Source: Candidatus Daviesbacteria bacterium (lineage in GTDB: Bacteria; Patescibacteriota; Microgenomatia; Daviesbacterales; UBA10151). Taken from it: a stretch of DNA of 64,000 bases. Shown here piece after piece: positions 4,269-14,620 of the stretch (position 1 is its first letter; the number at the start of each line of letters is the position of its first letter). The stretch lies in the NCBI GenBank assembly GCA_016187025.1, contig JACPKM010000001.1, forward strand, positions 245,688-309,687, in the 5' to 3' direction. The notes below the pieces were generated by a model. It was not told the DNA's origin and did no database searches. It worked only from the letters and a program-made list of their open reading frames with translations. A program made the position numbers and the translations under genes.

Positions 4269-4676
4269 ATGATAGACGATAAACTCATTTCACAAATTCA
4301 GCAGGCTCTATCTAAAGAACCTAAGATCAAATTGGCCTATGTTTTAGGTTCTACTGTTAGCGGAAGAGTAAAAACCGACAGCGATTTTGATTTAGCAGTA
4401 GTGACAGATGATAAGGCTCAGGTAAGTTACGATCAGATCTATCAGCTAATCTCCGGTTTAAGTTTTCCTAAAGATTTAGATTTATCCATAGTTGATAAAA
4501 ACTCTTCCCCGCTTTTTTTATTTCAAATTACCAGTACAGGCGAGTGTGTTTACCAAAAATCTGATACTGAGGGAATTGCTTTTGAAGCGTATGCTATGAA
4601 AAATTATTATGATACTGCTCACTTAAGAAGTATCTACTCCTCTTATCTAAAAGAAAGGTTTCCGTATGCCCATTAA
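4269..4676 (+). CDS. mntA: minimal nucleotidyltransferase, MntA-type antitoxin
   Basis: GS-x9-13-DxD nucleotidyltransferase motif (LGSTVSGRVKTDSDFDLAVV); overlaps the downstream HEPN gene by 11 nt. Confidence 0.75.
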   Translation: MIDDKLISQIQQALSKEPKIKLAYVLGSTVSGRVKTDSDFDLAVVTDDKAQVSYDQIYQLISGLSFPKDLDLSIVDKNSSPLFLFQITSTGECVYQKSDTEGIAFEAYAMKNYYDTAHLRSIYSSYLKERFPYAH

Positions 4677-5088
4677 TAAAACTCTGGTTTTTAAAAAGCT
4701 GGATTTCTTAAATAGCTATCTTCATAAAATAGAGAGTATGGATTTTAGCGAGGAAGCTTTTGTGGAGGATGCTGATATTCATGATCTGATAGTTTTTCGG
4801 TTGCAGCAGGCGGTAGAAACATGTATTGATATAGCAGCACATATTATTGCTGGTCTGGATGCGCCACAAAAAGAGACAGCAAAAGATGCCTTTATATTCT
4901 TAGGTGAGAAGGAAATTATAGATGTTGATTTAGCAAAAAGAATGGGCCAGGCAGCAGATTTTAGAAATAGGGCAGTCCATGGATACAATAATTTTGATTA
5001 CAGGTTACTCTTTAAAGATTATAGAGAAGACCTAAAAGATCTCCGCCAATTTGGAGCAGAAATAATTAAATATCTGGAAGGCGTATAA
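4666..5088 (+). CDS. hepT: HEPN-domain (DUF86) HepT-type toxin
   Basis: R-x4-6-H HEPN motif (FRNRAVHGY); 140 aa; coupled to the upstream nucleotidyltransferase gene. Confidence 0.75.
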   Translation: MPINKTLVFKKLDFLNSYLHKIESMDFSEEAFVEDADIHDLIVFRLQQAVETCIDIAAHIIAGLDAPQKETAKDAFIFLGEKEIIDVDLAKRMGQAADFRNRAVHGYNNFDYRLLFKDYREDLKDLRQFGAEIIKYLEGV

Positions 5089-5726: not shown

Positions 5727-6413
5727 ATAGATATCCACAAATCTTGCACTCCAGCCGGCTGTGCGGGCATCATTAAATCCTAAGTCTATAATATTTCCTT
5801 TGATTGCTCCACCAGTGTCACCGGCAACAGCTTCTCCATACCCCGGGATATAGACTTTAGATCGCATTGGTATAACTTTCGGATCAACTGCAATTACTCC
5901 TTTTCCAGCCCTCATTCCAATTGCAGTCCACTCATCACAACCTGGGCATTTTGAATCATAGTGTGTTGCATAAACTCTCATTTTCTTCCAGTATTTAATC
6001 TCTCCATCTGCAGTGCTCAAAGTTTTCCAAACAATTTTTGTTCCTCTCGATATTTTTTTATCTTTTGCTGGGGTAGTATCTATTGATACAACCTCCCGGT
6101 TATATTCTTTGTTGTCATAGTAGGTAATCTTGATTATCTTTACTTTTTTCCCAGCTCCTCCTTCTTCTAAAACTTTTTCTTCTCCTGCTTCTGTTTCTGG
6201 GTCGTCTTCGTAAACGGTTTTTTTGGGAATAATCTCAACATTCTCCTCTAGTTTGTCTGTAAATCTAGATTGAGTTTCAAGTGGTTGATATGCAGGAAGC
6301 TTATGATCACCTTCCTCGATACTGGCCTGAACTGGAGGTGGGAAGATTGGCCAGATGAATCTGGCTGTTAAAAGCAAAACTGCTATCAGAAAAAATCCCC
6401 AGTATCGGTCCAT
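5718..6413 (-). CDS. G5-domain plus 3D (RlpA/MltA-like double-psi beta-barrel) domain cell-wall protein
   Basis: N-terminal TM, acidic linker, G5-like segment (KKVKIIKITYYDNKEYNREVVSIDTTPAKDKKISRGTK), C-terminal 3D domain (ATHYDSKCPGCDEWTAIGMRAGKGVIAVDPKVIPMRSKVYIPGYGEAVAGDTGGAIKGNIIDL). Confidence 0.6.
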   Translation of the reverse strand: MDRYWGFFLIAVLLLTARFIWPIFPPPVQASIEEGDHKLPAYQPLETQSRFTDKLEENVEIIPKKTVYEDDPETEAGEEKVLEEGGAGKKVKIIKITYYDNKEYNREVVSIDTTPAKDKKISRGTKIVWKTLSTADGEIKYWKKMRVYATHYDSKCPGCDEWTAIGMRAGKGVIAVDPKVIPMRSKVYIPGYGEAVAGDTGGAIKGNIIDLGFNDARTAGWSARFVDIYLL

Positions 6414-8281
6414 TAGCTATTTAGCCAGTCATCTGCATCAATCTGACTGATATCAGAATCGATTATATCATCTGAATTCTTAAAATCACTGTAATTGGTG
6501 TTGCTGATTATTAGCTTCTCTGGAATATCAGACAAAAACCTGGAAACCAAGTTATTTGATCTTTGGCCAAAATATAACCTTTGTCTTGTATAGGTTAAAA
6601 AAAGCTTTTCCTTTGCCCTTGTGATGCCAACATAGCAAAGTCTTCTTTCTTCTTCCAGTTCATTCGGATCAAGCATTGAACGGGAATGGGGAAATAACCC
6701 CTCTTCCATTCCTATCATAAATACAATGGGAAACTCCAGTCCCTTTGCACTGTGGAGAGTCATTAAAGTCACAGCATTCACTTCCTCTTTTCCTTTTAAA
6801 GCTTTTTTAGGCAGGTTACCATTTTCAACCAGCGCGGCATTTTCTAAAAATTCAATTAAATTAGGAAACTCTTCCGCAACAGAAAGTAGCTCTTTGACAT
6901 TTTCTACTCTGCCTTTTCCCACCTCTGTTCCATCATCTATATATGCTAAATACCTGGTTTTTGATAAAGCTTTTTCAAGCAGTTCTCTGGTTGTATAAGA
7001 TGTTGGATTTATAGCAATTTCTTGGTAAATTTCTAAAACCTGAGAAAGTCTACCTTTGCCAATTTTTTCAGCGCGTTTTAGGGCAACAGAATCTTGAGGA
7101 TTTTGCAAAAGCCTAAGGTAGGACAGAATGTCCTTAATCTCTTTTCTTTCATAAAATGAAACCCCGCCAAATAACTTATATGGCACACCAGACCTTAAAA
7201 ATTGTTCTTCCAAAGCACGGGATTGTGCATTAGTTCTATAAAGCACTGCGTAATTCGACAACCTTTTTTTGTCTATTTGGGAAAGAATAAATAGCGCTTC
7301 TTCTACCTCATTTCTGGTTTCAACTATCTCAATTTTTTCTCCGCCATCTTTGTCAGTCCACAGTTTTAAAATCGGATGAGTTCTATTTTTGGAAATGATT
7401 GCATGGGCTGCATCCAAAATGTTTTGAGTAGAGCGGTAGTTTTGTTCCAGATAGAAAATTTTTGCGCCGGGATAATCCTTTTCAAAATTAATTATATTTC
7501 GGTAGTCTGCGCTTCTGAATGAGTATATCGACTGGCTGGCATCTCCAACCACACAGATATTTTTGTGACGGTTTGCTAAATACTTGGAAATTAGGTATTG
7601 CGCCGGGTTTGTATCCTGGTATTCATCTATTAAGATATATTGAAATTGTATTTGGTAGCGTGTAAGAATTGTTGGTTCTGCCTGAAACAGGCGGATGGTT
7701 TTTAATAAAAGATCGTCAAAATCTAAAGCCTGGTTTCTTTCTAAAATCTTTTGATATTCCAAATATATTTTGGCTACAGTTTCCTGGAAAAAGCCTCGGG
7801 CATATTGAGGATATTCGGTTGCAGAAATCAGTTCGTTTTTTGCACCAGAAATAGTGCTTCTTACAGCATAAGGTGAGGTTTTTTGAATAGGGATTTTTAA
7901 ATTACCCATGGCTTCTTTGATAGCATCCAGTGCGTCTTTTTCATCATAGATTGCAAAACCCGGGGGAAGCCCCAACACTTGTCCTTCACGGCGAAGTATT
8001 TTGGCACAAAATGAATGAAATGTTCCCATAACAGGTAAAGTGGGTAAATCGCCGATTAATTTTTTAATTCTTTTAATCATCTCGCCGGCTGCTTTATTGG
8101 TAAAAGTTAAGGTTAAGATATTTTCTGGGGAGATCTTTTTTTCAGCAATAAGATATGCAACACGATATGTTAAGACCCTCGTTTTTCCGGATCCTGCCCC
8201 GGCCAAAATTAAACAAGGTCCTTCTGTATTTTTGACAGCTTCCTGTTGTTCGGGATTTAGATCATCAAGAAGAGCAGACAT
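6413..8281 (-). CDS. pcrA: ATP-dependent DNA helicase PcrA/UvrD family (start probably at M13, MSALLDDLNPEQQEAV; ORF track extends to 8317)
   Basis: Walker A LILAGAGSGKTRVLTYR, helicase motifs throughout (DEYQDTN, VGDASQSIYSFR, TLHSAKGLEFP, GITRAKE). Confidence 0.85.
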   Translation of the reverse strand: MSALLDDLNPEQQEAVKNTEGPCLILAGAGSGKTRVLTYRVAYLIAEKKISPENILTLTFTNKAAGEMIKRIKKLIGDLPTLPVMGTFHSFCAKILRREGQVLGLPPGFAIYDEKDALDAIKEAMGNLKIPIQKTSPYAVRSTISGAKNELISATEYPQYARGFFQETVAKIYLEYQKILERNQALDFDDLLLKTIRLFQAEPTILTRYQIQFQYILIDEYQDTNPAQYLISKYLANRHKNICVVGDASQSIYSFRSADYRNIINFEKDYPGAKIFYLEQNYRSTQNILDAAHAIISKNRTHPILKLWTDKDGGEKIEIVETRNEVEEALFILSQIDKKRLSNYAVLYRTNAQSRALEEQFLRSGVPYKLFGGVSFYERKEIKDILSYLRLLQNPQDSVALKRAEKIGKGRLSQVLEIYQEIAINPTSYTTRELLEKALSKTRYLAYIDDGTEVGKGRVENVKELLSVAEEFPNLIEFLENAALVENGNLPKKALKGKEEVNAVTLMTLHSAKGLEFPIVFMIGMEEGLFPHSRSMLDPNELEEERRLCYVGITRAKEKLFLTYTRQRLYFGQRSNNLVSRFLSDIPEKLIISNTNYSDFKNSDDIIDSDISQIDADDWLNS

Positions 8282-8328
8282 GGTGCATATCTTAACACCA
8301 GGACTAGCTTTTGACAAAAGCTAGGACA

Positions 8329-8479
8329 CCCGCTACTTACCACTTAGTCCAAAAGAAATTTATATCACGAAGAGGTCCTGCGACGTCTATCAAATTGCGC
8401 ATACAAAACAGCCTCCCGTACATCAGTAAGGGAATGCCCTAAGGATTCCAGTATACTGGCTCCTATATTTTCACCTTCC
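8329..8479. repeat. left copy of a ~150-bp imperfect direct repeat (about 85% identity to 9865..10017); contains the 3' end of the Clp_N gene plus downstream spacer
   Basis: Direct sequence comparison of the two stretches (shared ...atcacg(a/g)agagg..ctgc(c/g)a...tatcaaat(t/c)gcgcatacaaaacagcctcccgtaca...ggctcctatattttcaccttcc). Confidence 0.7.
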
Positions 8480-9021
8480 AGTACCAGACCTAAGAGAAGG
8501 TGTTCCCCTGTGGTCTGTAGATGTTCTAATCTTTGTGCCGCATATCCTGCATGTTCTATAACTGTTCTTGCTCGTGGTGTCAAACCAGGAAACCCTTGTG
8601 TAGGTCTATCGCCTCGTTCAATCATAAATTCTACTGCACTGTGAACCTTTGCTTTATTCACACCAAGATCACTAAGAATTGGTGCTGCCGGGCATCCTTC
8701 GTGAAGCATTGCCAAAATTAAATGTTCAGTACCTATATATTGATGATTAAAGCTTTTTGCTACTTCAAAACAATCAAGTGTAAGTGTTGCTTGGAGATCA
8801 AAAGAAAAATCCCTTCCTCGAAATTCCGGATATAAAAAATCAAATAACTGCCTTACGGCTTCAGGATCTCTGTCAGTAGTAGTTGCTAAAAGCTCTTCCT
8901 GCCGAAATTTTCTATAAGTACCACGAGCTGCCTCAAGCTGCCCTATCATTAACTCTCTCTCGCCTTGAGGAATATCCCCTCTAGTAAGTATCCTATCACC
9001 AGCTTTGATCCATTCTCGCAT
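8365..9021 (-). CDS. Clp N-terminal-domain repeat protein (double Clp_N repeat, no AAA+ module)
   Basis: Two Clp_N repeats (YIGTEHLILAMLHE... and TGEHLLLGLVLEGENIGASIL); local GC about 48-50% versus about 35% for neighbours. Confidence 0.65.
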   Translation of the reverse strand: MREWIKAGDRILTRGDIPQGERELMIGQLEAARGTYRKFRQEELLATTTDRDPEAVRQLFDFLYPEFRGRDFSFDLQATLTLDCFEVAKSFNHQYIGTEHLILAMLHEGCPAAPILSDLGVNKAKVHSAVEFMIERGDRPTQGFPGLTPRARTVIEHAGYAAQRLEHLQTTGEHLLLGLVLEGENIGASILESLGHSLTDVREAVLYAQFDRRRRTSS

Positions 9022-9094
9022 ATGTAGTCGAATGCTAACTCACTATAAGTCATTTGTCAATACTATGCCATATATCTTGTTTTATTGTACCTTC

Positions 9095-9195
9095 GAAATA
9101 CCACGAGTGTAAACTCGTGGATGAAGAAGGTTCCGACAAAGTCGGACTCACCGAAGGTGAGAACAAGAGGATACCACATGCGTTAGCTTGTGGTA
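9095..9195. ncRNA. candidate structured RNA / leader: cluster of four GC-rich hairpins
   Basis: Stem-loops at 9101-9120 (CCACGAG-TGTAAA-CTCGTGG), 9133-9145 (CCGAC-AAA-GTCGG), 9147-9161 (CTCACC-GAA-GGTGAG) and 9174-9193 (CCACA-N10-TGTGG); lies between the Clp_N gene start (minus) and the brnT promoter (plus); no T-tract, no match to tRNA/tmRNA/SRP consensus by eye. Confidence 0.25.
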
Positions 9196-9249
9196 GATTC
9201 ATTTACCTTCTAGTCTTTCCGTAGAGAGCTTTACTATGTAAGTACGTAT

Positions 9250-9278
9250 TGACAAGATTATATTTGTGTAGTATGGTA
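9250..9278 (+). promoter_or_regulatory. sigma70-type promoter for brnTA (TTGACA-17-TATGGT)
   Basis: TTGACA at 9250-9255, 17-nt spacer, TATGGT at 9273-9278, about 16 nt before the brnT ATG; the TTG start used by the ORF track is the -35 hexamer itself. Confidence 0.4.
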
Positions 9279-9293
9279 TATACATATTTCTGG

Positions 9294-9590
9294 ATGAGAA
9301 CCGATAAAGATGTTTTTGAATTTGAGTGGAATAACGGAAACAGCGGGAAAAATAAAAAGCATAAAGTGGAAGACAAAGAAGCCGAGGAAGTATTTTTTGA
9401 TGAGAACAAAGTAACTTTTCCTGATAGTCTCCATTCCACAGACAATGAGGAACGTTTAAGAATAATTGGTAAAACTAAAAAAGGAAGGTTACTATTTATT
9501 GTCTTTACCAAAAGAGGTCAAAAAATTAGAATCATTTCAGCAAGAGATATAAACCGAAAGGAGGTGCCTCTTTATGAAAAAACCGCTTAA
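9294..9590 (+). CDS. brnT: BrnT (DUF497) ribonuclease toxin of type II TA system (start at internal ATG, MRTDKDVFEFEWN...)
   Basis: Characteristic FEFEWNNGNSGKNKKHKV N-terminus and RIISARDINRKEVPLYE C-terminal segment of the BrnT family; overlaps brnA by 17 nt. Confidence 0.7.
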   Translation: MRTDKDVFEFEWNNGNSGKNKKHKVEDKEAEEVFFDENKVTFPDSLHSTDNEERLRIIGKTKKGRLLFIVFTKRGQKIRIISARDINRKEVPLYEKTA

Positions 9591-9834
9591 ACTACCAAAG
9601 TTTAAAAATGAAGATGAAGAGAGAGGCTTCTGGGCGAAGATAGATTTGTCTAAATACTATGAGCCTTCGGATATGGAAAAGGTTAGTTTTCCTAATTTGA
9701 AACCTACCAGCAGGTCTATTTCCATTAGAATTCCGGAATATCTTTTAAATAGAGTCAAAGAAAAGGCTAATGAGATTAATGTACCCTATCAATCTTTAAT
9801 CAAAGATTATATTAAAAGGGGTATATTATCCTAG
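9574..9834 (+). CDS. brnA: BrnA antitoxin (RHH/CopG-like)
   Basis: C-terminal ISIRIPEYLLNRVKEKANEINVPYQSLIKDYI matches the BrnA ribbon-helix-helix consensus (ISLRLP...L...A....VPYQSLIK); translationally coupled to brnT. Confidence 0.7.
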   Translation: MKKPLKLPKFKNEDEERGFWAKIDLSKYYEPSDMEKVSFPNLKPTSRSISIRIPEYLLNRVKEKANEINVPYQSLIKDYIKRGILS

Positions 9835-9864
9835 TAAATGGGTTGTAGCATCTGAAAAAGAACA

Positions 9865-10017
9865 CCCATTACTTACAACTGATCCTAAAGAAACTTACAT
9901 CACGGAGAGGTTCTGCCGATACTTCTATCAAATCGCGCATACAAAACAGCCTCCCGTACACTAACAGGGGAATGTCCTAAGGATACCAGTATACAGGCTC
10001 CTATATTTTCACCTTCC
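9865..10017. repeat. right copy of the ~150-bp direct repeat; on the minus strand encodes a decayed Clp_N C-terminal fragment (..SLGHSPVSVREAVLYARFDRSIGRTSP*)
   Basis: About 85% nucleotide identity to 8329-8479; minus-strand translation parallels the C-terminus of the intact Clp_N protein (..SLGHSLTDVREAVLYAQFDRRRRTSS*). Confidence 0.65.
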
Positions 10018-10037
10018 CCACTATATACGAAAAAAGA

Positions 10038-10805
10038 TCAAATGATGAACTGGCTGACAGTTGTTTCTAAAGACTTTTTATCAATCCGGGTTTTCAGTTT
10101 TTTTAACCAGGTTAAATCAACACAAAACTGTTGAGATATTTCTTCAGGGGAAATCTGCTTCTCAGTCAGCAAAAACAAGATTGGGTCTATTTTATCCCAG
10201 GTTAGAGCGATATTTTCCGGATAGAGTAACCCCTGGTAATTAGTAAGAGGTATGAATTGACCGGGAATATTTAGAAATTGGGCTAGATCATAAAGTTCTG
10301 ACTTGTACAATGAATAAAAAGGCATAAGATGTCCATAAAAACCTTCAGGTCTGTTGCCTAGTAGTCTGTCGCTTTTATCAAAGGTGTCAACTATTACAGC
10401 TTTCATATTCTCCGCTTGAATAGCTGAATGATAATTTATAAAACGTTGATAGAATCTTTTAAGGCTTGCAGGGGTATGCAGTTGATAAGCAGAAATTTCA
10501 GATTGATAAGCTGCACCGCGTTTTAAAATAAAAGTTTCCAGCCCGGAATATTTACAGAGCTCGACCAAGCTATTTGTTTCATCGGTTCCAAAATCAAAAA
10601 TCATTGCCACAATGTTTTCTTTCGATGCTTGTCTGAGTAACGCTCCGGCAACGATAGAATTAATGTCTCCGGATATCCGCACCATGATTTTGTGATGGCC
10701 GTGTTTTGACAAGTACTGGTAATAGTGTTGCAGATAATCAGTTAATTTGGTAACCAGTTGCTCATCAACTGGTTTTTTATATTTAAACAGATTGAGCAGG
10801 TCCAT
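10038..10805 (-). CDS. nadE: NAD+ synthetase (NadE, NH3-dependent) family protein with degenerate PP-loop
   Basis: PP-loop-like RISGDINSIVAGALL (SGGxDS reduced to SGDINS) and the NadE C-terminal pattern VIVDTFDKSDRLLGNRPEGFYGHLMPFYSLYKSELYDLAQFLNIP. Confidence 0.5.
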   Translation of the reverse strand: MDLLNLFKYKKPVDEQLVTKLTDYLQHYYQYLSKHGHHKIMVRISGDINSIVAGALLRQASKENIVAMIFDFGTDETNSLVELCKYSGLETFILKRGAAYQSEISAYQLHTPASLKRFYQRFINYHSAIQAENMKAVIVDTFDKSDRLLGNRPEGFYGHLMPFYSLYKSELYDLAQFLNIPGQFIPLTNYQGLLYPENIALTWDKIDPILFLLTEKQISPEEISQQFCVDLTWLKKLKTRIDKKSLETTVSQFII

Positions 10806-10819
10806 ATCAGGTACTAATA

Positions 10820-11761
10820 TTGTATACTAATTTAATGGATGATAAACTGCCCCCGCCAATCAAAATTACCCCAAACTCCCCGGATATACCTAATCCCCCA
10901 AATGACGATGACCCCATATTTGAGGCTAAAATCAATAACCCCTTTAGTAAATTTTTTAGCTGGATCAAAGATTTCCTTAAAAAACAAAGTAATATAACTA
11001 TTAAAATACCCATTATTGGTATTATCATGGGATTATCAGGTCTGGGGATCGGATGGGGCACAGGATACAACTGGGGTTTTAATACTGCACTTGCTAAACT
11101 ATTTCCCAACTCCTCTCCTGTTTTTCATAGGGCAGTTTCTTTAGAAGGAGTAATTCAAAAATCTGCTTCAGCGCAATTTTATCTAAAATCAGAGGATAAC
11201 TTATGGATTTTGAAACCAAAATCCCCAATCACCCCGGCAATCATAGAAACCTCAGTTGAAAAACAAGTGAAAGTTTTAGGTAATTTAACCAAAGAAGCAA
11301 ACGCTGTTGAAGTCTCAGAAATTATCCCGCTTGAGTCTCCCCAACCTACCCTAACGCCCCTTACCTCCCTTGTAAATTCTTATTCCTCTACTTCTTCTAA
11401 CCCTTCTAATCCCCCTGACTCTGAGCTTAAATTACCGGATCTCTTCACAGGGCTGCAATGGGTATCCACCCAAAAAAAGGTTTTAGTTTTTACCTCGGGT
11501 AAAAGAAGGATGGATGTGGAAGGGTTTCACATTGAATCATCCCAGCTTACTTCTTTCCCTCAGGATTTTATTAACTACTATATTACTGAGCTTAAAAACA
11601 AAGGCTTTAAAGAAACTCTAAATTCTATTAATCCTGAAGGGATAACAGTAACTTATTCCAAAGATGACCTCTTTTTAACTTTTGGAGTCAAAAATATCTA
11701 TCAAGGCAAAGCAGATAAAAAACAACTTGCAGGTTATGTTGCCTATCTAGAACATAATTAA
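10820..11761 (+). CDS. hypothetical membrane protein with Pro-rich N-terminus and extracellular domain
   Basis: 313-aa ORF, TM IKIPIIGIIMGLSGLGIGWG, S/T/P-rich linker; no recognisable family. Confidence 0.4.
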   Translation: MYTNLMDDKLPPPIKITPNSPDIPNPPNDDDPIFEAKINNPFSKFFSWIKDFLKKQSNITIKIPIIGIIMGLSGLGIGWGTGYNWGFNTALAKLFPNSSPVFHRAVSLEGVIQKSASAQFYLKSEDNLWILKPKSPITPAIIETSVEKQVKVLGNLTKEANAVEVSEIIPLESPQPTLTPLTSLVNSYSSTSSNPSNPPDSELKLPDLFTGLQWVSTQKKVLVFTSGKRRMDVEGFHIESSQLTSFPQDFINYYITELKNKGFKETLNSINPEGITVTYSKDDLFLTFGVKNIYQGKADKKQLAGYVAYLEHN

Positions 11762-12147
11762 GTCTTTGGGGTAAAGAGCTTTATCCCCTTGATATTCTCA
11801 AAATCTTTCCGGTTTAATGTAGCCAGTTCTAATTTGTGGAAAAGAGTAGTGGCGGCAATAATTGCATCGGAAAGGTTTCTGCCATATTTTGCCCTAGTTT
11901 CCCCGGCTTTCTCTGAAATCTCTTCTTCTAATGGCAAAATTTTGATATCCGAAAAAAGTGACTTTAATGTCTGCAAAGCCTCTGTTTTCTCCCATATACT
12001 TTTTCCAGAAAAGCATTCTGTATGAGTAATAATGGAAGCATAAAGCGGAATTTGGCTTTGTTCTAACTTGATCTGTATTGTTTTACGTTTATCTTTTTGA
12101 CGCAGGAAATCTATAATAATGGAAGTATCAACTAATACGCCATTCAT
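11758..12147 (-). CDS. vapC: PIN-domain ribonuclease toxin VapC
   Basis: N-terminal LVDTSIIIDFL with conserved acidic residues; 129 aa; start overlaps the stop of the upstream RHH gene. Confidence 0.7.
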   Translation of the reverse strand: MNGVLVDTSIIIDFLRQKDKRKTIQIKLEQSQIPLYASIITHTECFSGKSIWEKTEALQTLKSLFSDIKILPLEEEISEKAGETRAKYGRNLSDAIIAATTLFHKLELATLNRKDFENIKGIKLFTPKT

Positions 12148-12404
12148 TACCAGTTATATTTTTTTAATCTTTTTTCCAGATCCTTTCGAATTTTTTTGTA
12201 TTCCTGATAATCCTTATCAGTAAACCAGTCGGTTTTCAAATTTAACAGCATTTTAATCCTATCCTTTTTAGACATTTTTTCCTTACTGCCGACCTTCTCC
12301 CTAATGATTGCAGAGAAACTTTTTCTTTTTTTGGCTGCTTCCTCTTTGAGTCTTAAATAATCTTCTTCAGGCAGTCTGATGTTAGTTACCACATAGTTAC
12401 TCAT
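12147..12404 (-). CDS. vapB: ribbon-helix-helix antitoxin VapB (start at MSNYVV...; the ORF-track N-terminal extension is rejected)
   Basis: NIRLPEEDYLRLKEEAAKKRKSFSAIIREKV is a typical RHH/CopG segment; immediately upstream of and coupled to vapC. Confidence 0.55.
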   Translation of the reverse strand: MSNYVVTNIRLPEEDYLRLKEEAAKKRKSFSAIIREKVGSKEKMSKKDRIKMLLNLKTDWFTDKDYQEYKKIRKDLEKRLKKYNW

Positions 12405-12572
12405 ACAATACCATTGTATCATGATATTGAAATTAGTCAATATTAAGTCTTGTCCAATACAAGATGAGCATGAAATAACAGGTTGTTCTAATACAAGAAG
12501 AGCATAAAAAACCGCAAACACAAAACGAAAGCTTTACAATTTATAGCAATCATAGTATCATCTACGGTTATT

Positions 12573-13409
12573 ATGGGCCTAAATACAGTTGAAAGTGATA
12601 CTTCAGCAGTCAGAAATTCTGGATATAGGAGTTTAGCGGGATTTCTCAACCCAATCGTAGAAAAAGGGCAGGCACGTTTCCCCGGGGTCAAAGCATGGCA
12701 CATTACAGCTACTGGGATAGCTTTGACAATAGCAGGAACCGAGCTTGAAGAATATCAAAATCGAAGAGGCAAACATACAACATCGCTAGACTTGCTATCC
12801 GGTGCATTAACAGTTCTGGGAGTAGTTTGTGATCTTTTAGATGGTAAATGGGCAAGACTGGCAAGAAGTGAGATGTGGGATCCTGTAAAAAGAGAGGATA
12901 ATGAAAAATGGGGACAGGCGATAGACCCGGCTGCAGATGGGGTTATAGAAGCGCACCGGGCGTTTGCTGGGGCAGTAACAGCCTGGCATTTAGGTGATAA
13001 AGAAGGCTTTAATGCTGCAATGAGAAATATGGAAAGTACCAATCGGCCCAGGACTGCAAAAGCTTTTGTAGGGGCTTTCGGTAAAGCTACACCTGAAAGC
13101 TACCCCGTTTTTGATCCGAGATTCCTCGGCACAAGTTTAGGCAGGAAAGTACCTAACTTTCTCAGTACATATGTTAGAAAGCTTAGAGGATGTCCTATAC
13201 AGTTTATGATGGATTCAAGGGTAGCTAATGCAAATGATGTGGTAACAGCTGAGCGTTTATGGATGGTAGTTAAGCCTGCGAAAAGATTGAATGGTAAGGA
13301 GGCTAAACATGCCCAGGCTAGACTAGTGGTACTTGGAGCAGAAACCTTGGCTATTGCAGGTGCTGCATACCTTGTACGAAAAACCCTTACCTTTCCAGAG
13401 AATAAGTAG
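12573..13409 (+). CDS. GC-rich hypothetical membrane protein with partial CDP-alcohol phosphatidyltransferase-like motif
   Basis: DLLDGKWAR...GQAIDPAADG resembles DG-x2-AR...G-x3-D-x3-D; hydrophobic segments; GC about 47% versus about 35% background. Confidence 0.35.
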   Translation: MGLNTVESDTSAVRNSGYRSLAGFLNPIVEKGQARFPGVKAWHITATGIALTIAGTELEEYQNRRGKHTTSLDLLSGALTVLGVVCDLLDGKWARLARSEMWDPVKREDNEKWGQAIDPAADGVIEAHRAFAGAVTAWHLGDKEGFNAAMRNMESTNRPRTAKAFVGAFGKATPESYPVFDPRFLGTSLGRKVPNFLSTYVRKLRGCPIQFMMDSRVANANDVVTAERLWMVVKPAKRLNGKEAKHAQARLVVLGAETLAIAGAAYLVRKTLTFPENK

Positions 13410-13437
13410 CTTCCCTTTCAGGGAACGCAGGCATCTG

Positions 13438-13560
13438 TTATTTATTTCCTGTAACCAGATACGATGCTTGCCCTTCAACAGCTGCGGCTAGCACCATATT
13501 GTCATCAGGATCATTTTTTAAGCCATATGGGCAAAATATAATAATTTCTATAACCGCTAT
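13438..13560 (-). pseudogene. 3' fragment (40 codons) of a PIN-family toxin gene
   Basis: Minus-strand translation IAVIEIIIFCPYGLKNDPDDNMVLAAAVEGQASYLVTGNK* matches the conserved C-terminus of PIN-family toxins; preceded by an in-frame stop and has no start. Confidence 0.4.
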
Positions 13561-13589
13561 TTAACACTACATCATAATATATTAAGGTA

Positions 13590-13618
13590 TTGACATGTAG
13601 TATTATGTAGTATAATAT
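13590..13618 (+). promoter_or_regulatory. strong sigma70-like promoter upstream of fic (TTGACA-17-TAATAT), overlapping a direct repeat TGTAGTAT-TA-TGTAGTAT
   Basis: TTGACA 13590-13595, 17-nt spacer, TAATAT 13613-13618 (alternative TATAAT 13611-13616); 40 nt before the fic ATG. Confidence 0.45.
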
Positions 13619-13657
13619 AACAATCATGAGCAAGAAACTTGCCCCGCTCAATGCCAT

Positions 13658-14620
13658 ATGAACAATAAGTTAAGTTTATTGACACAAAAGAAACAAAAGC
13701 TAGATGGTTTTAGACCATTACCTCTAGAATTGGTTAAAAATCTTGATGAATGGTTTAAGGTAGAACTTACCTACACCTCTAATGCCATTGAAGGTAATAC
13801 TCTAACCAGGGCAGAGACAGCCCTAGTAGTAGAAAAAGGTATTACCGTACAAGGTAAGAGTTTAACAGAACATTTAGAGGCGACTAACCATGTTGATGCT
13901 TTGGAATATGTAAAAACACTGGTAGGCAAAAAAAGGCAAGATATAACAGAACAAGATATTTTAGATATAAACAGGCTAATCTTAAATAAGATTGAGGCTG
14001 TTAATGCGGGTAGATATAGGACACAACATGCACGGCTGACTGAAACTGATGTAATTTTACCCAACCCAGTTAAAATTCCAGAGCTTATGGAGGAGTTTAT
14101 GGGATGGCTGGTGGGTGATAATTCAGACCATGTAGCAAAGATAGGGGCTGATGCTCACTTCAAGTTAGTTAGTATTCATCCATTCTCGGATGGGAACGGT
14201 AGGACTTCCCGACTTCTCATGAACTTACTGTTTATGCAAGAAGGCTACCCACCTGCTATAGTCCGTAAAGAAGATAGATTAGCATATATAAACTCCTTGG
14301 AGAAAGCTCAGAAAGGCGGTGGGTTAGATGATTTTTATAATCTAATTTATGAAGCAGTTGACCGCTCGCTGGATATTTATTTAGAGGCACTCCAACCAGA
14401 AAGAGAGAGTTTAGCAGAGCCTATCCCAGCTCAGAGGTTTTATACTACAGATGAGGTGGCAAGATTACTTCAAGTAGATCCAGAGAGTGTTAGAAGATAT
14501 GTCAGGAGAGGGATACTGCGGGCAGTTAAGTTGGGTGGTAAGTTTATTAGAATAGACAAAGCTGATTTAGACAGGTTTATTGAGCAATTAAAAACAACTA
14601 GGACTGGACTTACGCAATAA
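13658..14620 (+). CDS. fic: Fic/DOC family protein with N-terminal inhibitory helix motif and C-terminal excisionase-type HTH
   Basis: Fic motif HPFSDGNGRTSRLLMN; N-terminal SNAIEGN ([S/T]xxxE[G/N] alpha-inh, class II-like); C-terminal YTTDEVARLLQVDPESVRRYVRRGILRAVKLGGKFIRIDKADLDRF resembles excisionase/MerR-family HTH. Confidence 0.75.
   Translation: MNNKLSLLTQKKQKLDGFRPLPLELVKNLDEWFKVELTYTSNAIEGNTLTRAETALVVEKGITVQGKSLTEHLEATNHVDALEYVKTLVGKKRQDITEQDILDINRLILNKIEAVNAGRYRTQHARLTETDVILPNPVKIPELMEEFMGWLVGDNSDHVAKIGADAHFKLVSIHPFSDGNGRTSRLLMNLLFMQEGYPPAIVRKEDRLAYINSLEKAQKGGGLDDFYNLIYEAVDRSLDIYLEALQPERESLAEPIPAQRFYTTDEVARLLQVDPESVRRYVRRGILRAVKLGGKFIRIDKADLDRFIEQLKTTRTGLTQ

Follow-up and report, generated by a model that had tools for sequence, protein, structure and literature searches.

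Integrase-mediated genomic islands usually target tRNA or tmRNA genes, and islands that target the 3' end of a gene carry this end as one repeat and a partial copy of it at the far end. Relics of tandem duplications are truncated in-frame 3' fragments with neutral-looking substitutions and a co-duplicated flank, whereas REP/BIME or MITE-like elements are short, highly structured and intergenic. Chromosomal type II toxin-antitoxin cassettes populate variable hot spots as compact units with a promoter of their own, and the BrnT/BrnA pair was first described in Brucella abortus. Mycobacterial ClpC2 represents a stand-alone ClpC N-terminal-domain protein (PMC10030653; preprint PMC13345244). The locus of Candidatus Daviesbacteria that is compared here with these systems is located between a nadE-like gene and pcrA; its features are compiled in Table 1, with positions counted in the window, i.e., the whole stretch of 64,000 nucleotides that was analysed.

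Table 1. Features of the nadE-pcrA locus in the window (., no strand assigned)
Feature	Position	Strand	Description
pcrA/uvrD-type helicase	6413..8281	-	UvrD-helicase 9e-90 and UvrD_C (Pfam); left border of the slot
pcrA native promoter region	8289..8324	-	TTGTCA-17-TAAGAT within palindrome CTAGCTTTTGTCAAAAGCTAG; left insertion edge
Repeat A	8323..8479	-	last 38 clpN codons, stop codon and ~42 nt of 3' flank
clpN	8365..9021	-	218 aa; Pfam Clp_N in two stretches, 1.4e-24
Predicted clpN promoter	9032..9060	-	TTGACA-17-TAGCAT, ends 10 nt before the ATG (near-leaderless); consensus scan only
Hairpin element	9085..9215	.	outer stem P1 around H1, two small hairpins, CAAGAGGAUACCAC motif, H4
brnTA cassette	9249..9834	+	promoter to stop; Pfam and promoter scan
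brnTA predicted promoter	9249-9277	+	TTGACA-17-TATGGT
brnT	9294-9590	+	BrnT_toxin (PF04365), 5e-23
brnA	9574-9834	+	CopG_antitoxin (PF12441), 9e-28
Repeat A'	9860..10017	-	relic of the clpN 3' end and 3' flank, 157 nt
Junction	10018..10037	.	20 nt separating A' from the stop codon of nadE; right insertion edge
nadE-like gene	10038..10805	-	NAD_synthase family (Pfam 3.9e-12); backbone gene, right border of the slot

The relatives share a common backbone with the gene order TIM-MGMT-trx-(about 300 aa)-nadE / pcrA-G5/3D. The nadE homologues of the syntenic relatives exhibit 59-69% identity, and pcrA is a conserved backbone gene with orthologues of 55-85% identity, whose -10 box is predicted by the promoter scan 7 nt ahead of the ATG. 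In one relative (L094) the junction is empty, the nadE stop codon being followed by 43 nt including the pcrA promoter and then by pcrA itself, and positions 8284-8319 of the window are 94% identical to this spacer. The similarity between the native spacer and the 20-nt junction at the other edge is not significant. The slot contains MazE and PIN genes with 50% GC in L096, an 86-aa membrane ORF in L095 and 537 nt of unrelated sequence in L091-L093; a decayed PIN toxin in the slot of L091 was considered and rejected for absence of Pfam support. The clpN gene, the hairpins, brnTA and the repeat are absent from the slots of L091-L096. Synteny with the relatives, not composition, shows that the segment from ~8320 to 10037 represents an apparently acquired, lineage-specific insertion. 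Repeat A abuts its left edge and A' lies 20 nt from its right edge. The sequence-only reading had predicted an empty site in which clpN remains between nadE and pcrA, whereas the empty site that was found in L094 lacks clpN as well. The neighbourhood of the slot is rich in toxin-antitoxin genes (MNT/HepT, VapBC, Fic).

The two copies A and A' are the sole pair of direct repeats of at least 40 nt in the 64-kb window. Their secure extent, as determined by gapped alignment, is ~85% identical, with an ungapped core of 97 nt (8383-8479 versus 9921-10017) at 90% identity, and blastn recovers 94 nt at 90.4% (E = 1.9e-28). The repeat claimed from the sequence was confirmed, and the assignment of the left copy to the 3' end of the Clp_N gene plus its downstream spacer was likewise corroborated. 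The right copy had been described as a decayed C-terminus on the same strand, and its in-frame translation is exactly as stated (GEGENIGACILVSLGHSPVSVREAVLYARFDRSIGRTSP*). It comprises 39 in-frame sense codons and a stop codon, including one additional codon, and has no start codon. The homology stops at 10017/8479, and the copies are 1.36 kb apart with unique sequence between them. In the coding part 98 of 114 positions are identical, apart from one 3-nt indel, compared with 32 of 42 in the spacer behind the stop codon. The spacer (~24%) is roughly twice as diverged as the coding part (~13%), which is consistent with a single duplication after which one copy remained constrained and the other was free. 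Ten codon changes are nonsynonymous and two synonymous, and the differences are distributed 7/7/3 over the codon positions, all of these being small counts (17 differences in 117 nt); one change replaces Leu by Pro within a helix. A', which is located upstream of the intact clpN, is a relic under relaxed constraint.

In the ClpN protein, one helical unit of the TPR-like kind (residues ~23-60) precedes an entire N-terminal domain of the ClpC type (~69-210), in which two tandem Clp_N repeats form one domain of ~145 aa. Residues 84-207 align to structures of the ClpC1 N-terminal domain (residues 16-140) with E = 7.5e-24. An AAA+ module is absent, with Pfam reporting Clp_N only and all PDB matches confined to the N-terminal domain; a Clp/Hsp100 ATPase (ClpA/B/C) was therefore rejected for this protein of 218 aa without a nucleotide-binding module after the N-terminal domain. 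ClpN resembles mycobacterial ClpC2 in being small, in the order of an N-terminal extension and a ClpC1-NTD-like domain, in the absence of the ATPase and in the presence of the GTEH/TGEH motifs of both Clp_N repeats. It differs in its N-terminal part, a single TPR-like unit without detectable similarity to ClpC2, and in its host, a CPR bacterium. A ClpC2-like autorepressor is not supported, because ClpC2 chains match the N-terminal-domain part alone and a dimerisation/DNA-binding domain of the ClpC2 type was not detected. A search of 1.84 billion representatives with the N-terminal 75 aa returned a TPR-repeat protein as the sole match. BLAST and MAFFT offered tempting alignments in which the N-terminus is paired with the first of the domains in 340-aa homologues; taken alone, however, the N-terminal 72-78 aa reached E >= 0.06 by blastp and scored no better than shuffles against the family profile, and clpN was accordingly rejected as a 5'-truncated double-NTD gene. 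A homologue above 217 bits is absent among 5.8 billion proteins (self-score 485), and the named close matches belong to Ktedonobacteraceae only; clpN is unique in the databases searched. The consensus scan also predicted an alternative clpN promoter at 9113->9084, and palindromes of the form TACCAC...GTGGTA are located upstream of the gene. Neither clpN nor brnTA has a PADLOC match as a member of a defence system.

The presence of a complete brnT-brnA module with its own promoter, as claimed by the sequence-only reading, was confirmed by Pfam and the promoter scan. BrnT scores 81.6 bits with the BrnT_toxin family (Pfam cut-off 34.5) and BrnA, which is encoded downstream of the toxin gene, 97.2 bits with PF12441 (cut-off 28). 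The two genes overlap by 17 nt and form a single operon behind one upstream promoter, so that the cassette represents a predicted BrnT/BrnA type II toxin-antitoxin pair. It agrees with the chromosomal hot-spot cassettes in being toxin-first and overlapping, with a sigma-70-type promoter of its own, and in its occurrence as a compact promoter-to-stop unit in many unrelated contexts of related genomes. The brnTA cassettes of other Daviesbacteria exhibit 80-83% nucleotide identity from exactly 9264/9265 to 9833 and none beyond, and in their unrelated contexts clpN is not nearby. The limits of this homology coincide with the promoter and the stop codon, and the comparison shows that brnTA is modular and independent of clpN. 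Flanking repeats or a recombinase are absent in every context seen.

The hairpin element, whose two small hairpins have the loops AAA and GAA, folds with -54.6 kcal/mol (z = -7.0) on the plus strand and -47.9 kcal/mol (z = -6.2) on the minus strand. It had been designated a leader, but it is located between the divergent predicted promoters and upstream of both, and is thus not a demonstrated leader. A look-alike is present in another Daviesbacteria genome (L005, 16658-16773), where 6 of 25 pairs are compensatory. Rfam 15 provided no relevant match at E <= 10 for positions 8000-10500 of the window, and for the look-alike only 22.9 bits to a family with a gathering score of 114. Two covariance models, run over ~0.87 Mb of CPR loci, identified the L005 copy as the sole further member; the 25-bit matches in 71 pattern-selected viral loci, a set biased by this selection, concern the P1-H1 part alone. 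Every short-read contig is interrupted within the hairpin cluster, at the ~33-nt stretch 9136-9168, and there is evidence in the same metagenome for a second copy of ~33 nt of the element. A GTTRRRY core was not seen in the cluster by eye, and an integron integrase is also absent. The element shares its short, highly structured, intergenic nature with REP/BIME or MITE-like elements, as well as the occurrence of a look-alike in another genome with a different gene context. It differs in that only two members are known, terminal inverted repeats and target duplications are not seen, and the stems covary like structured RNA. Possibly, Daviesbacteria possess an as yet undescribed family of structured intergenic elements in multiple copies, of which the hairpins would be a member and which might mark or promote the insertion of small cassettes such as brnTA. 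The clpN repeat would then be a by-product of recombination at such an element and not a plain duplication scar, a scenario that we regard as rather unlikely. Such an element would act as RNA or single-stranded DNA.

The foreign appearance of the segment had been deduced from 45-50% GC of the Clp_N gene and the repeats in a genome of ~35%. The measured values are 42.5% for clpN, ~44% for the repeats and 37.5% for the window, which places clpN and the repeats at the 89th-95th percentiles; the whole segment has 38.5% and brnTA 33%. The third-position GC of clpN (25.6%) is host-like and below the window mean of 28.7%, and its overall GC content is raised because of the amino-acid composition. The insertion is upheld by synteny with the relatives, whereas the GC argument fails.

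In agreement with the earlier claim, the comparison of ORFs of at least 100 aa with Pfam revealed no recombinase at 1-18.8 kb of the window. A transposase is absent from the same range, inverted repeats are lacking at the segment ends, and the window contains no tRNA or tmRNA. An IS element, transposon or MITE was rejected for the absence of transposase, terminal inverted repeats and significant target duplication. The sole candidate for a target duplication (GACAAAAG / GAAAAAAG) is not significant, nor are the degenerate copies of the -35 palindrome; an extension of the repeat to the -35 palindrome of pcrA, or a target-site duplication, is not established by an 11/14 match that was equalled by 436 of 5,000 shuffles, and the anchored tests gave p ~0.04 and ~0.14. 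A plasmid or phage origin was also rejected, with zero blastn matches of 8320-10037 to PLSDB and INPHARED. Exact searches of metagenome and viral contigs with a 23-mer of the hairpins and a 26-mer of the repeat returned 0 hits, and the source organism is apparently absent from these collections. The arrangement is reminiscent of 3'-end-targeting genomic islands in that one of the repeats coincides with the 3' end of an intact gene and the partial copy is located at the far end. However, the segment lacks an integrase and a tRNA, its partial copy is located upstream rather than downstream, the intact clpN was itself inserted, and the repeats have diverged by 13-24%. An integrase-mediated island is not supported, given the lack of a recombinase at 1-18.8 kb of the window, the upstream position of the partial copy and the lack of the intact gene in the empty site.

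The repeats are probably a passive scar, left in an insertion hot spot by a second clpN copy that is now lost, and not active attachment sites. The few bases that separate the stop codon of nadE from the promoter of pcrA would represent a permissive slot in which foreign modules accumulate, and its content a 1.7-kb mosaic of independent pieces, namely, clpN, the ~130-nt hairpin element, brnTA and A'. The second clpN copy would have arisen either when the unit was duplicated in tandem or when a further copy was inserted through homology, and would then have lost its 5' three-quarters by deletion, with the remaining stump drifting neutrally ever since. With A' read as the stump of a lost clpN copy, a passive scar is favoured over sites at which an active element attaches. 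The "partly overwritten duplicate gene" that the sequence-only reading had offered comes close to this scar. We infer the two-copy intermediate and the 5' deletion; neither two full clpN genes nor clpN without brnTA were found in any genome, the nearest relatives having 67-69% NadE identity. At most, the repeats could still permit the 1,538-bp unit that they enclose to be deleted by RecA-type recombination. A' agrees with tandem-duplication pseudogenes in being a truncated in-frame 3' fragment with neutral-looking substitutions and a co-duplicated flank, but unrelated modules are located between the copies and the relic lies at the very edge of the insertion. It is somewhat surprising that a dead stump of 157 nt persisted through ~13% neutral divergence in a streamlined CPR genome.

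A single insertion event involving terminally redundant DNA would likewise account for the way in which A and A' bracket the insertion almost exactly. This DNA would be a linear copy, ~1.1 units long, of a small replicon with circular or tandem organisation that was joined illegitimately at the nadE-pcrA junction. Its terminal repeats would have been identical at first and would have diverged later. One event would suffice for an insertion that consists of A, the intervening sequence and A' plus just 20 nt, with the same sequence at both ends. We nevertheless consider this origin unlikely: a replication gene is absent, no similar replicon is present in plasmid, phage and viral collections, and the affinities of the Daviesbacteria-like brnTA (80-83% nucleotide identity) and of clpN, which has no close relative, are different and thereby argue for stepwise assembly. 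Campbell-type integration of a circular element had been proposed from the sequence, and a further reading in this fashion is an active mobile unit of 1,538 bp that would be excised and integrated as a circle through the ~157-bp att-like or RecA-homology repeats. The unit would consist of the 5' part of clpN, the hairpins, brnTA and one repeat. This would account for direct repeats that almost exactly bracket a lineage-specific insertion, for a toxin-antitoxin pair as typical cargo of small selfish elements, and for a hairpin cluster that could serve as origin or recombination site. The probability of such an active unit is nonetheless small, because the first 18.8 kb of the window contain neither integrase nor transposase, the repeats are just 76-87% identical with one of them decaying, and brnTA moves without clpN in other genomes, while plasmid and phage matches are missing and the repeat and hairpin scans of metagenome and viral contigs came back empty. 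Moreover, the relic is located upstream of the intact clpN, whereas an element directed to a gene's 3' end would leave it on the opposite side, and a single Campbell crossover leaves two full-length clpN genes, so that an additional 5' deletion is required regardless.

A retention of A' for a function, be it as regulatory RNA or, between the convergently oriented nadE and brnA, as insulator or terminator, would explain its persistence despite ~13% divergence, and A' contains one terminator-like site on the nadE strand (9968->9953, scan) and shares the reading frame of nadE. This site folds like its shuffles (z = -0.2; the equivalent in copy A z = -0.65), the single terminator-like site of the region compares with 1.4 expected by chance, and the frame match has a one-in-three chance, all of which makes a function of A' very improbable. 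An exaptation of A' as terminator was rejected with the same folding result. Finally, it is hardly credible that the contig is a chimera that joins the clpN 3' ends of two strain alleles. Such chimeras are possible in metagenome-assembled genomes, and the breaks of every short-read contig inside the hairpin cluster would accord with one, but seven independent per-sample Logan contigs give the orders nadE-A'-brnA-brnT and hairpin-clpN-A-pcrA with 0 mismatches to the window across A and A', which documents that the repeat did not arise during assembly. The distance of 1.36 kb with unique sequence between the copies also speaks against it, and the nadE-pcrA adjacency that is conserved in four relatives supports the contig join.

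Two modest leads emerge from the locus: a small protein, unique in the databases, in which a TPR-like head precedes a ClpC-NTD, and a structured hairpin element with two members. The case of clpN illustrates that a GC difference may stem from amino-acid composition and does not require a foreign origin. The gap between nadE and pcrA is a documented example of gene gain and loss in small CPR genomes, in which the cargo differs by lineage, mostly consists of toxin-antitoxin pairs, and leaves scars when it is replaced.

The direct repeat described in the sequence-only reading is genuine and far above chance expectation. Its ungapped core of 97 nt is 90% identical between the left copy A and the right copy A' (blastn E = 1.9e-28), a gapped alignment stretches it to 157/158 nt, and no further direct repeat of at least 40 nt is found in the 64 kb. 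The peptide quoted for the right copy was likewise recovered by in-frame translation of A'. An assembly artefact as the source of the repeat deserves hardly any weight, because seven per-sample contigs, assembled from short reads of the same project, show no mismatch to the window over nadE-A'-brnAT and hairpin-clpN-A-pcrA, which makes a chimera very unlikely.

Features of the nadE-pcrA slot and of the neighboring block 11758-14620; gene identities at the locus were assigned via Pfam
Feature	Position	Strand	Assignment	Remarks
nadE-like gene	10805->10038	-	Pfam	
Junction				20 nt, between nadE-like gene and A'
Repeat copy A'	10017->9860	-		
brnT + brnA (toxin + antitoxin)	9294-9834	+	Pfam	convergent with nadE
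Hairpin cluster	9215->9085			
clpN (small Clp_N gene)	9021->8365	-	Pfam	
Repeat copy A	8479->8323	-		final 115 nt of clpN + 42 nt of 3' flank
pcrA	8281->6413	-	Pfam	preceded by its own promoter
VapBC	PIN 11758-12147, RHH 12147-12521			in block 11758-14620
278-aa ORF			no Pfam match	in block 11758-14620
Fic-HTH protein	13658-14620		PADLOC SoFic / PDC-S04-like	

GTDB representative genomes reached via PcrA were too distant, with upstream synteny lost, and closer relatives were obtained through NadE homologues. All of the latter share the backbone TIM - MGMT - thioredoxin - ~300-aa protein (a homologue of the window 10820-11761 product) - nadE, followed by pcrA and a G5/3D protein. The slot between nadE and pcrA is empty in one of them (L094), and this empty site is not the predicted nadE - clpN - pcrA arrangement but consists of the nadE stop, 43 nt representing the pcrA promoter (36 nt at 94% identity to window 8284-8319) and pcrA. 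The slot harbors a MazE-PIN pair of 50% GC in a sibling genome from the same project (L096), a membrane ORF of 86 aa in L095, and, in the closest relatives (L091-L093; PcrA 80-85%), unrelated DNA of 537 nt that is apparently non-coding. Neither clpN nor the hairpins, brnTA or the repeat are found in the slots of L091-L096. This absence, together with the differing contents, identifies the segment ~8320-10037 as lineage-specific cargo of a slot that takes other cargo in each lineage. The MazE-PIN pair of L096 is located at 8715-9397, and the sampled slot region (8596-9540; ~50% GC) is a clear compositional outlier that likely reflects a recent transfer. The pcrA genes of L091 (2609-4462) and L095 (9213-12461) are split by an intein, as documented by a 1.2-kb interruption of the PcrA match in the former and by Intein_splicing and LAGLIDADG_3 in the latter; pcrA of the window is devoid of an intein.

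The foreign nature of the segment had thus been recognized correctly, but from its GC content and not from the comparison with relatives. The GC of clpN (42.5%) and of the repeats (~44%) does exceed that of the window (37.5%), but the contrast is modest, with values of 38.5% for the whole segment and 33% for brnTA. The third-position GC of clpN (25.6%) is below the mean of 48 long ORFs (28.7%), which indicates that the excess results from amino-acid composition rather than from a foreign base composition. BrnT homologues with 78-84% identity are numerous in Daviesbacteria and related groups, and in four other brnTA contexts the nucleotide homology begins precisely at the promoter (9264) and ends with the brnA stop (9833). 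These contexts comprise a glycosidase-like gene / yebC/ruvC gap, positions alongside tRNA genes and a tandem brnTA pair, and none of the four contains clpN or similar hairpins. The brnTA cassette is hence an independent module, and the cargo in the slot of the window is a mosaic. In L103, two tandem brnTA modules (163-1533) adjoin a tRNA 3' end, and the same sample contains the closest relative of the window; in L104, brnTA is flanked by two tRNA genes.

The right copy A' comprises 39 sense codons, one more than A, and lacks an in-frame ATG, GTG or TTG start. Its coding part differs from A at 17 of 117 nucleotides, which are distributed 7/7/3 over the codon positions and cause ten amino-acid changes versus two silent ones, including a Leu to Pro change within the last helix of the domain. 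This substitution pattern is that of a sequence released from protein-level selection. The co-duplicated non-coding flank is ~24% different, about twice as much as the coding part (13%), a ratio that, with small counts, supports drift of both flanks and of one of the two coding copies. The TGA stop of nadE shares the reading frame with the relic (9900-10040), so that read-through would append 46 residues; a common frame is expected in one of three cases by chance, and no evidence of recoding was found.

The simplest account of this arrangement, and a fairly probable one, is a passive scar, in which a former second clpN copy was reduced to a drifting stump. The second copy would once have been present via tandem duplication of the unit or homology-driven insertion, the upstream copy would then have lost its 5' part by deletion, and the remaining stump (A') would now be drifting. 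Campbell-type integration of a circular element was one possibility raised in the sequence-only reading; a single Campbell crossover between a clpN circle and a resident clpN leads to two complete genes, and every route accordingly requires a later 5' deletion of the upstream copy.

When an element targets the 3' end of a gene, the gene is restored and the partial copy comes to lie downstream of it. The present relic is, in contrast, located upstream of the intact gene, and the intact clpN itself belongs to the insertion. The left edge of the insertion coincides with the start of copy A, and A' ends 20 nt short of the right one. A one-step insertion of DNA with terminal redundancy is an unlikely origin, and slightly less probable still is an active 1.5-kb unit. 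Recombinases are absent from window 1-18.8 kb and tRNAs from the whole window, inverted repeats were not found at the segment ends, no significant target duplication is present at the insertion, and the segment lacks similarity to plasmids or phages. The retention of A' for a function is the most improbable of these three alternatives.

ClpN has the same sequence as MBI2600616.1, a protein encoded in a Candidatus Daviesbacteria genome (CPR, Microgenomates), and no close relative was detected among 5.8 billion proteins. The best matches are proteins of 300-380 aa with two ClpC-type N-terminal domains and 55-59% identity across one domain; the few named ones belong to Ktedonobacteraceae. ClpN holds one complete domain of this type (E = 7.5e-24 versus ClpC1 NTD structures), which is preceded by ~68 residues. 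Among 1.84 billion representatives, this extension matches only the repeat unit of one TPR protein, and residues 23-60 (window 8842-8955) resemble one repeat of the 643-aa TPR protein P0346 (E = 7.6e-12 over seven stretches). From analogy alone with ClpC2 and other stand-alone NTD proteins (PMC10030653; PMC13345244), ClpN may bind ligands or partners of a Clp unfoldase; it is likewise a stand-alone ClpC NTD protein, but lacks the N-terminal domain of ClpC2. This TPR-plus-ClpC-NTD protein is unique and a minor curiosity.

The hairpin cluster exhibits a very stable fold on either strand (z ~-7 and ~-6) and has no Rfam match. It had been regarded as a leader, but the predicted promoters of clpN (9060->9032, or 9113->9084) and brnT (9249-9277) both face away from it, so that it is demonstrated as the leader of neither gene. 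For pcrA, clpN and brnT, the distance from the end of the predicted -10 box to the ATG is 7, 10 and 16 nt, respectively, with no Shine-Dalgarno sequence (8281-8324, 9022-9060, 9249-9296), which points to leaderless or near-leaderless mRNAs in the organism; the predicted -35 box of pcrA lies inside a perfect palindrome with 10-bp arms. A single-sequence covariance model retrieved one look-alike of the cluster between unrelated genes of another Daviesbacteria genome (L005 16658-16773), which matches it in architecture and folds just as strongly (z = -7.2). The outer stems mostly differ in sequence with pairing kept (3/6 pairs altered on both sides), and both elements share an enclosed hairpin ACCACG...CGUGG, a GAA-triloop hairpin, the motifs UGAA and CAAGArGAUACCAC, and a last hairpin followed by UUCAUUU. 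Compensatory changes affect 6 of 25 pairs and 98% of cells pair in the two-member alignment, which was fitted to the model; a second covariance model, run over 0.87 Mb of CPR loci, added no members. The window's strain is represented by seven per-sample Logan contigs, all of which end at 9139-9165 with a 27-nt overlap, their other ends being variable; this suggests that ~33 nt (9136-9168) recur elsewhere in the genome or community; the 64-kb window contains no second copy. The element is a two-member candidate whose two strands fold equally well, a lead rather than a finding and a minor curiosity. A 71-nt motif with a stem around GGUACCACG...CGUGGGUGAA, present in L106 (2885-2955) and ~10 similar IMG/VR contigs (large phage), resembles its P1-H1 part, but these loci were pattern-selected and the likeness may be biased; the motifs are not tRNAs.

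A second lineage-specific block (11758-14620) is located between thioredoxin and the 313-aa gene; thioredoxin directly adjoins the ~300-aa gene in L091, L095 and L096, and repeats flanking the block were not found. An MNT/HepT toxin-antitoxin pair (Polbeta nucleotidyltransferase + HepT) is present at 4269-5088 and at the matching position in L096. Taken together, the original observation is confirmed and its interpretation partly supported: the acquired segment stands, but the GC argument, the hairpin leader and the proposed empty site do not. As an evolutionary scar in an insertion hot spot rich in toxin-antitoxin genes, the feature is of an ordinary kind.
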